Shown piece by piece: positions 27,456-29,694 of a DNA stretch of 33,091 nt (the first letter of the stretch is position 1; each line of letters begins with the position of its first letter). The stretch spans positions 1 to 33,091 of the forward strand of contig JBBTVF010000033.1 of assembly GCA_038063335.1 (NCBI GenBank), in the 5' to 3' direction. The DNA is from Patescibacteria group bacterium. Lineage in GTDB: Bacteria; Patescibacteriota; Minisyncoccia; UBA6257; UBA9933. The notes under the pieces were generated by a model. The model ran no database searches. It had not been told where the DNA came from and saw nothing but the letters and a program-made list of their open reading frames with translations. The position numbers and the translations under genes were made by a program.

Positions 27456-28361
27456 CTATCCACTAGTCACTAGTGTCGGCTTTTTTCCTTCAACTTGGAT
27501 TTTTGTTAATTTTAATTTATTATCAGAAATTTGCGCTTCTAATAATTTTATCCTTTTTCCGTTTACCCCCACACCAAACAAAGTTGTGGTGTGGGGGTTT
27601 ATTATAGTCCAAACACCGGGTTCTGGATTCAGGGCTCGAATTTTTCGTTCTATTTCAAAAGCGACTTGTGGCGAGCTTGCTGAATTATCTTGGGCGATTT
27701 TTAAATCTTCCGGTTTTATAAAAGCATCTTCGGTTTTAAATTTTTTAGTGTAAGTGGCTTGCAATTCGTCTTGTGGCGTCGCGTTTTTTATTTTTTCTTC
27801 AATATCCGGCAAGGTTTTAATCAATAAATCCGCGCTTAATTCCGCCAGTTTTTTCAATAAACTTTCATAAGTTTCACTAGTGGCTAGTGGCAAGTGGCTA
27901 GTGGTTAAAATTGGCCCGTTATCAATCTGCTCGTCCATTAAATAAAGCGTTGTTCCTGTTATTTCATCGCCGTTTAAAATTGCGGTTTGGATAGGAGAAG
28001 CGCCGCGATATTTCGGTAAAAGAGAGGGATGGATGCCGATTGCGCCGAGCTGCGGGATTTTTAAAATTTCTTTGGGGATAATTTGAGAATAAGCGGCAAC
28101 AATAAACAAATCGAATGATGAATTGGGAATTATGAATAATGAAGGGTCTAATTTTTCCGGTTGGAAAATTTGTATTTTATTCCTTATTCCTAATTCATAA
28201 TTCATAATTCTCTGTTTTACCGGCGGCGGGGTGATAATTTTTTTTCTGCCAACCGGTTTATCGGGATTGCAAACAACCGCCTCGGGTATAAAGTCGGCGT
28301 TAATTAATTTTTCCAAAATTATGGCGGCAAATTCGGGAGTGCCGAAGAATATGAATTTCAT
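27456..28361 (-). CDS. fmt: Methionyl-tRNA formyltransferase
   Basis: MKFIFFGTPEFAA, IVAAYSQIIPKEIL, GAIGIHPSLLPKYRGASPIQTAILNGD..TG.T, plus the C-terminal domain. Contains several repeat-derived in-frame segments. Confidence 0.9.
   Translation of the reverse strand: MKFIFFGTPEFAAIILEKLINADFIPEAVVCNPDKPVGRKKIITPPPVKQRIMNYELGIRNKIQIFQPEKLDPSLFIIPNSSFDLFIVAAYSQIIPKEILKIPQLGAIGIHPSLLPKYRGASPIQTAILNGDEITGTTLYLMDEQIDNGPILTTSHLPLATSETYESLLKKLAELSADLLIKTLPDIEEKIKNATPQDELQATYTKKFKTEDAFIKPEDLKIAQDNSASSPQVAFEIERKIRALNPEPGVWTIINPHTTTLFGVGVNGKRIKLLEAQISDNKLKLTKIQVEGKKPTLVTSG
27566..27597. repeat. Second copy of the CCCCCACACC / GGTGTGGGGG palindromic element, inside the fmt coding sequence
   Basis: Arms at 27566-27575 and 27588-27597 with a 12-nt loop. 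Translated on the minus strand as PHTTTLFGVG. Confidence 0.85.
27875..27904. repeat. Heptamer tandem repeat (CTAGTGG x4, one variant unit) inside fmt
   Basis: CA-CTAGTGG-CTAGTGG-CAAGTGG-CTAGTGG. Related units (CCACTAT CCACTAG TCACTAG TG) lie at 27453-27475, spanning the gap between the rpoC stop codon and the fmt stop. Confidence 0.85.
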
Positions 28362-28870
28362 TTTTTTATTTTATCTATAAACAAAATTCCGTTGAGGTGG
28401 TCTGTTTCGTGTTGAAAAACTCTGGCGGTCAGTCCTTCTGCTTTGATTTTAATTTTCTGGTCGTTTTTGTTAAAACCGGTTAGGGCGATTTTTTTCGGCC
28501 GTTCCACTTCGCCGAGAACTCCGGGAACGCTTAAACAGCCCTCTTCAATTATTTCCGTTTGTTTGGAAAATTTTATGATTTCCGGATTGAAAATCGCGTA
28601 AAATTTTGCTTCATCGGGAGATGGCATAATAATTTTATTTTTTTCGTCCCGTTTTAGCGGTTTGTCCGGAATTAAAGCGACAAACATTTTTAAATTCAAG
28701 CCGATTTGATTGGCGGAAAGCCCGATGCCGTTGGCATTCAACATTATTCCCCGCATTTTTTTAATCAATTCGTTGATTTCTTTTTTAGAGAATTTTACGA
28801 AGTCAAAATTTGCGGTTTTTGTCCGCAAAAATTTCTCCTCTTTTTTATTGTTAATGGTAAGAATTTTCAT
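28358..28870 (-). CDS. def: Peptide deformylase
   Basis: GIGLSANQIG, EGCLSVPG, QHETDHLNG (HExxH). Start overlaps the integrase stop and stop overlaps the fmt start, 4 nt each. Confidence 0.93.
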   Translation of the reverse strand: MKILTINNKKEEKFLRTKTANFDFVKFSKKEINELIKKMRGIMLNANGIGLSANQIGLNLKMFVALIPDKPLKRDEKNKIIMPSPDEAKFYAIFNPEIIKFSKQTEIIEEGCLSVPGVLGEVERPKKIALTGFNKNDQKIKIKAEGLTARVFQHETDHLNGILFIDKIKK

Positions 28871-29694
28871 AAATTATCCAATGGGCTTTTAATATTTCTA
28901 ATGGCTGGATTGGTAACTTTTGTATAGAGTTGGGTTGTTCTGATATTCTGATGCCCCAATAATTCTTGTACATATCTTACATCAACTCCATTTTCCAGCA
29001 AATGTGTCGCAAAGCTGTGGCGGAGTGAATGGAAAGTCGCCTCTTTTTGGACACCTGATTTTTTGAGTGCGTTTTCAAAAACTTTTTGCGCCGTTCGTTC
29101 TGTTAATTTTTCACTGCGTTCACTGGCAAATAAATAATCATTAATGTTTTTATTTGAAATCGATTTTTCAATATTTTTAACTAATTTTTCAGGTAAAATA
29201 GTAATACGATCTTTATTTCCTTTTGCTCCTTTAAGATGAATTGTCAATTCCGCTAAATTAATATCTTTCACTTTCAAATTTATAACTTCGCTGACACGGA
29301 ATCCGGCTCCGTAAGACAAGGCAACGATTAATTTATGTTTTTGATTTGAAATGGAATTTATAATTTTTTCTATTTCCAGCCGCGAAAGCACTATTGGCAA
29401 CTTTTTTGATGTCTTGGCAAACTTTAAGTCAATCACAATCAGCGATTTCATTATATCGCGATAGAAATATTTTATCGCGTTAAGATAAAGATTGATGGTT
29501 TGCGACGATTGTTTCCTTTCTTGTTTCTCTAATAGATATTTTTTGATTACATCAATATTCGGGTCTTTCTCAATGGTTCCAATAAAACGAAAGAAATTGG
29601 ATAAGCACAGAATATAGCTTTTTATCGTTTTGCGACTGTAGTTGCGCAATCTTAGCTCGTTTTCAATTTTTTGCAACAACTCTTGTGTTTGCAT
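28867..29694 (-). CDS. intI: Tyrosine recombinase; candidate integron integrase, short form without the IntI-specific extra domain
   Basis: R-H-R-Y set: GAGFRVSE, HSLRHSFATHLL, LLGHQNIRTTQLYTKV. The N-terminal YSRKTIKSYILCLSNFFRF and C-terminal IKSPLDNL resemble IntI as remembered. Divergent from an attI-like site and a cassette array. Confidence 0.8.
   Translation of the reverse strand: MQTQELLQKIENELRLRNYSRKTIKSYILCLSNFFRFIGTIEKDPNIDVIKKYLLEKQERKQSSQTINLYLNAIKYFYRDIMKSLIVIDLKFAKTSKKLPIVLSRLEIEKIINSISNQKHKLIVALSYGAGFRVSEVINLKVKDINLAELTIHLKGAKGNKDRITILPEKLVKNIEKSISNKNINDYLFASERSEKLTERTAQKVFENALKKSGVQKEATFHSLRHSFATHLLENGVDVRYVQELLGHQNIRTTQLYTKVTNPAIRNIKSPLDNL

Follow-up and report, generated by a model that had tools for sequence, protein, structure and literature searches.

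What is a short tyrosine recombinase that resembles the integrases of integrons doing directly ahead of the genes def and fmt in a bacterium of the Patescibacteria group? We address this question in a stretch of 33,091 nucleotides (nt), contig JBBTVF010000033.1 of assembly GCA_038063335.1, which we analysed at its full length and refer to as the window. The recombinase gene lies on the minus strand at 28867..29694, and its open reading frame (ORF) encodes 275 amino acids (aa) with Phage_integrase and SAM-like N-terminal domains (Pfam, NCBIfam). The region upstream of it, read on the opposite strand from 29695 to 33091, is not ordinary intergenic DNA, and it is there that we look for an answer. 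In our reading, which we hold to be probable, the recombinase, a XerA/IntI-like protein without the I2 insertion of IntI, is the integrase of an integron-like gene-cassette platform in a groundwater bacterium of the Candidate Phyla Radiation (CPR; Paceibacteria-type).

The recombinase gene is divergent from a near-palindromic, dif-like site of the form TTCGCATAA-N7-TTATGTGAAAT. The core of this site, which we call attI-like, spans 29786-29813 and consists of the L arm ATTCGCATAA, the spacer TAACGAG and the R arm TTATGTGAAAT; the crossover, we infer, falls between G and TT at 29802/29803 (hereafter G/TT). Some 45-75 nt upstream of the recombinase ATG there is also an accessory site (29739..29768), the 30-nt palindrome CTAAAACTTCGCATAATACGCAAGTTTTAG, which holds a second direct copy of the L-arm sequence, TTCGCATAAT, at 29746-29755. 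For comparison, we fetched 80 loci from relatives. In 24 CPR loci, the upstream region aligned on ATTTCG-NATAACTCGTTNTTATNCGAA shows the same dif-like site, with AACT and TA invariant; the second L-arm copy lies about 28 nt closer to the gene than this site, and the form of the accessory site is kept across CPR loci as TTGTATATTATRCGAAT.

A palindrome this close to perfect, with an R arm one base off the XerD arm of E. coli dif (TTATGTTAAAT), also fits a rival explanation. The recombinase might be a housekeeping Xer protein of the CPR, XerA-type, that works as a single recombinase on a chromosomal dif, chiefly to resolve chromosome dimers, in the manner of xerS-difSL or xerH-difH, the cassettes being either incidental or hitchhikers like the integrative mobile elements that exploit Xer (IMEX). 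The spacer of the attI-like site, apparently 7 nt and not 6, does not favour this explanation. We regard it as unlikely, though worth serious weighing, and we take it up again together with the evidence from the protein.

What follows the attI-like site is an array. Of the 11 copies of the motif RTTRKGYGA in the 33-kb window, 10 fall within 29755-33040. After the G/TT crossover at 29802/29803 there are at least four single-ORF units of fixed polarity. Each ends in an attC-like site, a long imperfect palindrome, and these sites share one plan. Read 5' to 3', each site consists of R'' (ACATCRCMYAAC), 1-2 nt and L''; a central region; and then L', AWAC and R' (GTTRKGYGAAAT). The R boxes bear the same arm sequence as the attI-like site (TTRKGYGAAAT), and the L boxes vary from site to site yet are complementary within each site.

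Cassette 1 (29803..30717, plus strand) contains an ORF of 186 aa at 29917-30477 that belongs to no family, and site A (30520-30728) has the boxes R'' ACATCACATAAC, L'' ACGCATATCTG, L' CAGATGATGCGT and R' ATTAGGCGAAAT. Cassette 2 (30718..31545, plus strand) contains an ORF of 124 aa on the minus strand at 30834-31208, again without a family, and site B (31372-31556) has R'' ACATCGCCCAAC, L'' CGGCACATGCG, L' CGCATGTGCCG and R' GTTAGGCGAAAT. The ORF of cassette 3 (31546..32719, plus strand; ORF 31604-32458) encodes 284 aa, of which only the last ~50 residues match EPSP synthase (AroA; TIGR01356, E = 7e-9, far below cutoff), so that the protein looks like a fragment-like or divergent fold of unassigned role; site C (32560-32730) has R'' CCCTCGCCTAAC, L'' AAGAATAAAAG, L' CTTTTATTCTT and R' GTTGTGCGAAAT. 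Cassette 4 (32720..33091, plus strand) is cut by the end of the window, and its ORF of 85 aa (32763-33020) is a PQ-loop/SemiSWEET-type membrane protein (PF04193, E = 1.8e-10). A fourth site, D, starts at 33029 and runs past the end of the window; it is 96% identical to site B (a 71-nt repeat, 31364-31434 / 33021-33091). The sites are 160-210 nt long in the window and 72-126 nt long in some relatives.

To see whether these sites are structured, we aligned 13 of them, ungapped and over their 5' and 3' halves only, all pre-selected by duplex energy. In the L helix, 13 of 13 pairs show compensatory double changes, and pairing is intact in 80% of cells; covariation scores 0.484, as against 0.186 +/- 0.024 for shuffles and 0.05-0.21 for slid-partner controls. 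In the R box, two positions never pair, which leaves a conserved CA x AA mismatch. The L'' sequences are merely 43% alike between sites, and the mean energy of the L''/L' duplex is -17.1 kcal/mol for cognate and -7.9 for non-cognate pairs. The folding z-scores are -5.1 and -5.9 for site B (either strand) and -3.9 for site A. A scan of 27000-33091 against Rfam gave a chance-level match only, and the conserved attC cores correspond to no described RNA family.

The complementarity extends beyond the boxes. Each cassette's 5' leader pairs with the bases that precede its own R'', and not with those of the neighbouring site. For 47 cassettes, pairing between the 40 nt that follow R' and the 40 nt that lead up to the same cassette's R'' came to -19.4 kcal/mol; for non-cognate combinations the value was -8.9 (P = 2e-13). 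Folding thus yields a long rod in place of a short hairpin. In 14 of 14 informative cases, moreover, the next R'' downstream is a better fit to the variable R' bases (TTRKRYG) than the R'' beside them (P = 6e-5), and the sequence past GTT belongs to the following cassette. As far as the sequences allow us to judge, this match of R' to the next R'' is the classical integron signature of a crossover at G/TT.

Inverted repeats around genes could also be read differently, as modules bounded by duplex Xer sites like the pdif modules of Acinetobacter, or as invertible segments such as invertons and shufflons, in which inverted duplex sites recombine and not folded strands. The R''-L'' and L'-R' half-sites do alternate in orientation, flanking ORFs and central regions in turn, and one cassette ORF stands on the opposite strand. 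As in pdif modules, genes are bracketed by Xer-type sites of which one arm is conserved and XerD-like and the other varies, and the modules are reshuffled between replicons. The pdif sites, however, are 28-bp duplex sites of plasmids that use the host's XerC/D, whereas the half-sites here covary as hairpins, never change polarity and come with a dedicated recombinase beside them. They also differ from each other systematically (GATGT versus GAAAT, 7-nt versus 10-nt spacers, a 2-nt bulge); since they are non-equivalent in this way, they are not interchangeable duplex partners. The L arms, little alike between sites, are complementary within a site, and complementarity runs at least 40 nt past the arms. 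Finally, when the motifs are scored by strand relative to the gene over 15 loci, R'-type motifs stand at 27 to 0 and R''-type motifs at 0 to 16, so that inverted polarity was never found. We consider duplex modules or invertible segments very unlikely.

The metagenomes bear on the question whether the cassettes are discrete mobile units. The L'-R' sequence of site B is present in 29 metagenome contigs; the ~150 nt before GTT are largely kept in most of them, and the sequence beyond GTT differs among many. Three of these contigs include a full-length recombinase (47, 51 and 74% identity), each time with the gene leftward and divergent. The attC DNA is ~80% identical where the recombinases are only 48-63% identical, and the cassette ORFs differ. 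In Logan contigs of the source samples, breaks fall at the borders of the sites, and two alternative cassettes follow attC B. The cargo found elsewhere comprises NUDIX, HAD, methyltransferase, B12-radical-SAM, reverse transcriptase, PNPOx-like and AlaRS-like proteins, and 19 of the 23 longest cassette ORFs are directed away from the recombinase.

A few of these contigs call for separate comment. One attC B contig (L107, in our numbering of loci) carries only a 73-aa recombinase fragment, on the array strand. A Logan contig of run X2 joins 29850 to 30473, so that ORF1 would be gone and the leader-trailer stem kept; this could be an ORF-less variant of the cassette or an artefact of the assembly folding back at the inverted repeat. 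A second contig of that run joins 29508 to 29741. The reverse transcriptase (RVT_1, E = 7e-26) lies on the reverse strand of a 2.4-kb cassette (L098:849-3295), and may be a retroelement or a defence-type reverse transcriptase that travels as a cassette or has been inserted in one.

How general is this arrangement? Among the relatives, the first 5 kb upstream of the gene contain 0.51 motifs per kb, and other sequence contains 0.07 per kb (Poisson P = 3e-22). A stricter search for hairpins, in which L pairing was ungapped, missed attC A and most relatives; by the duplex-energy search that we used, 16 hairpin-type R''...R' sites lie upstream of the gene and 1 elsewhere. Of 33 CPR-type loci, 20 have a contig end fewer than 600 nt from the gene on its upstream side and only 1 has one that near on the downstream side, and several contigs stop exactly at the ..ATAAC crossover. 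We attribute these breaks to an array that varies within the population and thereby disrupts short-read assembly. The loci concerned are L001, L003, L008, L012, L016 and 15 further ones, with the break 80-600 nt upstream of the gene.

One relative, the Wolfebacteria genome CP011209 (L005), is closed. It has at least three short sites of 72-85 nt, and three identical 25-nt R''-L'' stretches within L005:7700-9900; the first site follows attI after ~100 nt with no ORF between, and looks like an empty cassette. In another locus (L081) the strict motif has no match in the 5 kb upstream, and the gene layout and a blast match to attC B indicate one cassette.

AttC-like hairpins with the same R-box motif are found outside the CPR as well. 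They occur beside insertion-less relatives of the recombinase (58-59 aa in the motif distance defined below) in one metagenome-assembled genome (MAG) of Spirochaetia and in several Bacteroidota (L051:5735-10085, L056:17199-18017, L079:11406-12416, L046:11697-11830, L078:13721-16128 and L035:11908-12600). Here the layout is 'inverted', the sites being downstream of the gene and on the same strand. At one of these loci (L051), sites of 164-174 nt follow one another every ~1 kb, five in all; downstream of the gene in Saccharibacillus (L035), only matches to the R-box motif were seen, and no hairpin sites. Because these insertion-less relatives in Spirochaetia and Bacteroidota have attC-like sites, a platform without I2 may, to judge from the sequences, extend well beyond the CPR.

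We turn now to the recombinase. It has the complete R-K-H-R-H-Y catalytic set of tyrosine recombinases: R133, H222, R225, H248 and Y257 are invariant across 26 homologues, and K161 is aligned with K172 of XerD. An earlier note on this DNA, made from the sequence alone, had described the protein as short, lacking the extra domain of integron integrases, and IntI-like at its termini, and all three statements are borne out. From the K.R motif of the beta-hairpin to HxLRH there are 58 aa in the recombinase, and almost all of the CPR homologues measured have this same distance (two have 61 aa), compared with 100 aa in IntI1 and in the insertion-bearing IntI homologues L073 and L080, and with 62 aa in XerC and 66 aa in XerD of E. 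coli. At the C-terminus, a KSPLD tail is shared with IntI1 and not with E. coli XerC or XerD.

It is important, however, to separate the loss of a segment from its divergence, since a canonical integron integrase whose extra domain had diverged past recognition would also adjoin an array, give a partial match to the integron-integrase model TIGR02249 (212 bits), keep the SPLD tail, and have the integron integrase VchIntIA as its top match in Foldseek, all of which the recombinase does. The segment is nonetheless physically missing. The alignment to VchIntIA (2a3v) is split: residues 7-180 of the recombinase match 6-182 of VchIntIA and residues 195-274 match 240-319, which leaves ~43 residues of IntI unmatched; the alignment to TIGR02249 likewise falls into two stretches; and in the AlphaFold2 model (mean pLDDT, the model's own confidence score, 80) residues 180-198 contain no helix. 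Given 58 aa between the motifs against 100 in IntI1 and 62-66 in XerC/D, we conclude that the insertion is absent rather than diverged. The length measurements refute a diverged extra domain, and a canonical integrase in disguise, which in addition scores under both IntI cutoffs, is hardly credible.

To which family, then, does the recombinase belong? By the curated hidden Markov models (HMMs), it is XerA-family: it passes the equivalog NF040815 (recomb_XerA_Arch) with 232.1 bits at a cutoff of 220, and it fails both integron-integrase models (TIGR02249, 212.3 bits versus a cutoff of 265; NF011946, 143.9 versus 435) as well as those of XerC and XerD (TIGR02224, 177 bits versus 335; TIGR02225, 178 bits versus 330). 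Among solved structures, the best sequence matches are XerA of Pyrococcus and of Thermoplasma (4a8e and 5hxy), which align end to end, followed by VchIntIA; by fold, VchIntIA and XerA are about equal. As a family assignment, the label 'IntI-like' is not supported by the curated models. As a description of role, an IntI-like recombinase without the extra domain is fair, because the gene adjoins a cassette array.

We also built a rough neighbour-joining tree with XerC/XerD as outgroup. Its deep nodes have less than 50% bootstrap support, and so we draw just two conclusions from it: that the recombinase falls outside XerC/D, and that insertion-less forms surround the IntI clade. In this tree XerC and XerD group together, apart from every other sequence including the recombinase; the XerA proteins are basal; and the insertion-bearing IntI clade (100% bootstrap) is nested, at deep nodes that are unsupported, in forms without the insertion, which come from DPANN archaea, Bacteroidota, Spirochaetes and CPR. 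Patescibacteria have thousands of homologues that are 272-275 aa long and 70-80% identical, and these are named XerD, 'tyrosine-type recombinase' or 'site-specific tyrosine recombinase/integron integrase' in their sources. In four loci of Gracilibacteria/Peribacteria-type (L022, L023, L025, L026), the recombinase ORF is truncated under table 11, which is expected if UGA is sense (code 25).

Smyshlyaev et al. 2021 (PMC8138268) described a 'Cand' subgroup of simple tyrosine recombinases, related to Xer and from candidate phyla, which they presumed to be a Xer substitute. The taxonomy of the homologues fits, and the recombinase very probably belongs to this family; that study reported neither cassette arrays nor attC-like sites.

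These results return us to the housekeeping explanation. The XerA model and the XerA structures, the very high conservation and wide distribution in the CPR, the treatment of the 'Cand' group as a Xer substitute, the packing of the gene with housekeeping genes, and the loci in which no cassettes were detected are all in its favour. Moreover, the archaeal XerA/dif, XerS/difSL and XerH/difH modules share with the present system a recombinase of the same length and fold, with no insertion, and apparently a single recombinase acting on a palindromic site. The genes xerS and xerH have their own dif site immediately adjacent, and the placement is the same here. The present system differs from those modules in its adjoining cassette array with the same arm sequence, its IntI-like SPLD tail and its apparent 7-nt spacer. 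The array polarity, the covarying hairpin sites and the cassette-specific R' bases are left unexplained by a housekeeping role. A site for resolving dimers might be sought near the terminus, but no terminus-type switch in GC skew is seen in most loci examined: there is no consistent sign change, and both 10-kb flanks have the same sign in L002, L005, L011, L022 and L081. This test is weak evidence, because the windows are short. In the closed Wolfebacteria genome, the locus is at ~12% of the record. The two roles are not mutually exclusive, and resolution of dimers by Xer could coexist with an integron-like function.

If the recombinase is the integrase of a cassette platform, how would it work? 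As a homodimer or tetramer, it would bind the attI palindrome and the R and L arms of a folded cassette site. One strand of the cassette site would fold into a rod that mimics a duplex Xer site, and this rod would recombine with the double-stranded attI; a single strand would be exchanged at G/TT, and replication would resolve the product. Precedents for such an exchange of one strand are the recombination of integron attI with attC and the integration of CTXphi at dif (PMC7790495). The strand choice and the block to a second exchange would rest on conserved asymmetries of the site, because there is no I2 helix in which extrahelical bases could dock; the candidates are a central loop of 1 versus 4 nt, the TT bulge of the L box, the CA x AA mismatch of the R box, and the extended leader-trailer stem. 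Duplex forms are unlikely to go through a complete double exchange, since the spacers are unlike in sequence and also in length (7 nt in attI and on the R''-L'' side, ~10 nt on the L'-R' side).

Several observations weigh against the cassette platform and must be set beside the evidence for it. Canonical attC sites are ~57-141 nt long, and those in the window are 160-210 nt. The AT-rich site C folds no better than shuffles overall, with its R and L stems still in the minimum-energy fold, and the sites used for covariation had been pre-selected by duplex energy. No circular-cassette junctions were seen among the assembled contigs. In four loci (L004, L009, L011 and L014) the strict motif has no match within 5 kb upstream. 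The protein passes the XerA equivalog, and its very high conservation (70-80% identity across the CPR) is in keeping with a housekeeping role. Finally, the I2 helix is reported to be necessary for recombination of attC by IntI (PMC7790495) and is absent here; thus we only infer that recombination takes place on single strands.

How does the proposed platform compare with known systems? The likeness to integrons (IntI/attI/attC, as in the chromosomal integron of Vibrio cholerae) is extensive. The layout is the same, with a recombinase, a primary site and an array of mostly single-ORF, co-oriented cassettes, as is the imperfect palindrome at the cassette end with its R''-L''/L'-R' boxes and GTTRRRY-like core. 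In both, the structure of the site is conserved over its sequence, the TTRRRY of R' moves with the downstream cassette, near-identical attC sites can occur within an array, and the cargo is diverse and largely of unassigned function; the C-terminal SPLD tail is also held in common. The differences are of equal interest. The recombinase here lacks the I2 alpha-helix, the additional domain near patch III that defines IntI, and fails the IntI HMMs. The sites are longer, and pairing of leader with trailer carries their stem 25-70 nt past the R box. An 11-nt Xer-like sequence makes up the R arm, and attI is dif-like and palindromic. The hosts are bacteria with ~1-Mb genomes, and integrons are reported to be missing from genomes of this size (PMC4889954). 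Finally, one type of attC, if not more, seems to have an outward-facing promoter of its own.

The promoter just mentioned is a promoter-like element inside attC B (31453..31482, plus strand), recognised by eye, in which an 18-nt spacer separates CTGACG from the extended -10 TGATATAAT. It points towards the following cassette, ~120 nt before ORF3, and the stretch is kept in most of the 29 metagenome copies of the attC B type (L088-L116). Cassette sites may thus carry promoters of their own, unlike classical cassettes, which are promoterless.

In CTXphi and IMEX, as would be the case here, a folded single-stranded hairpin that mimics a Xer duplex joins a dif-like site by one strand exchange. The differences are that the elements here are small promoter-plus-ORF cassettes in ordered arrays, and not phages, that one recombinase takes the place of XerC plus XerD, and that there are no replication or morphogenesis genes.

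The I2 helix defines integron integrases and is held to permit the recombination of folded single-stranded attC (PMC7790495). In the scheme of Escudero et al. 2020 (PMC7790495), integrons arose from a Xer-like ancestor that was hijacked by ss-IMEX elements (IMEX of the single-stranded kind), and intermediates are lacking. Cury et al. 2016 required an IntI-specific profile, found very small genomes to be without integrons, and noted only four attC-linked recombinases 'intermediate between IntI and Xer'; the archaeal IntIs of Ghaly et al. 2022 have the extra domain, and CPR are not mentioned there. We found no description of cassette arrays in CPR, Patescibacteria or Parcubacteria in the full-text literature searched, which mostly excluded subscription journals. 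Because the IntI-defining feature of the protein is absent, the system, which appears to work like an integron, should not be filed as a canonical one.

A wider interpretation is possible, and we advance it tentatively. CPR, and apparently some Spirochaetes and Bacteroidota, would possess an old and distinct class of integron that never acquired I2, with a dif-like attI and rod-folding cassettes, maybe serving also in dimer resolution as a Xer/dif system. If this is true, such a class would be a living intermediate between Xer and integrons, of the kind whose absence Escudero et al. 2020 noted.

If the platform itself is real, a widespread natural recombinase that has attC-like arrays and no I2 would make the transition from Xer to integrons testable. 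It would raise the questions of whether hairpins can be recombined without I2 and of what replaces the recognition of extrahelical bases. Gene capture by cassettes would extend to bacteria with ~1-Mb genomes, and CPR lineages would have a common pool of mobile cassettes, with NUDIX, HAD, methyltransferase, radical-SAM, reverse transcriptase and SemiSWEET cargo. A recurrent break in assemblies of CPR MAGs would be explained, and detection rules that demand an IntI-specific domain would be overlooking a whole class of platform. A stripped-down integron that is widespread in the CPR could, more generally, illuminate the origin of integrons from Xer recombinases.

It remains to ask why the gene stands ahead of def and fmt. 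Downstream on the minus strand lie def (28358..28870; peptide deformylase, 170 aa; Pep_deformylase in Pfam and NCBIfam) and fmt (27456..28361; methionyl-tRNA formyltransferase, 301 aa; Fmt in Pfam and NCBIfam). The stop of the recombinase gene and the start of def share a 4-nt ATGA overlap (28870-28867), as do the stop of def and the start of fmt (28361-28358). Terminator-like hairpins at 27444..27475, between the convergent ends of fmt and rpoC, are likely to mark the end of the recombinase-def-fmt unit. Since the recombinase heads so tightly packed a unit, it is probably expressed together with these housekeeping genes in this genome, as its gene order suggests.

The earlier note had proposed just such a coupling to def and fmt. 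The overlaps are there; the arrangement is not a conserved one. The order recombinase-def-fmt is common only to a 99%-identical relative (L084) and is specific to this lineage. In an 81%-identical relative miaA is downstream of the recombinase, and other downstream genes are prmC, trmD (twice), dus, a miaB-like gene, a GT4 glycosyltransferase (three times) and an MFS transporter; fmt is downstream in only one other relative (L013). We accordingly rejected a conserved recombinase-def-fmt synteny, the downstream partners being variable. Most relatives lack def-fmt beside the gene, and many of them have arrays; with the insertion absent and the protein outside XerC/D, none of the three outcomes that the note had named as refuting its view is seen. 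In 15 of 26 CPR-type loci with a callable downstream ORF, the downstream gene is co-directional, with a gap of -7 to +29 nt. Thus the integrase commonly heads a tight housekeeping unit, and the partner gene is not conserved.

This variety of neighbours also bears on the last alternative, namely that the gene serves as integrase to a prophage or another integrated element and lies beside def-fmt by chance. The Phage_integrase domain of Pfam would suit such an origin. No phage or conjugation genes are found nearby, however, the recombinase has no arm-binding domain, and gene and site are kept together across CPR classes beside different housekeeping genes; a stranded phage integrase is thus extremely improbable.

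Two minor observations concern the expression of the unit. A sigma-70 promoter scan found none upstream of the gene on the recombinase strand, and its total was below that of shuffles, so that the scan is uninformative for CPR. On the coding strand of def, at 28809-28829 and 40 nt into the gene, there is a weak terminator-like hairpin with a 7-bp stem and a T run, which could be an attenuator of read-through from the recombinase gene or a chance match.

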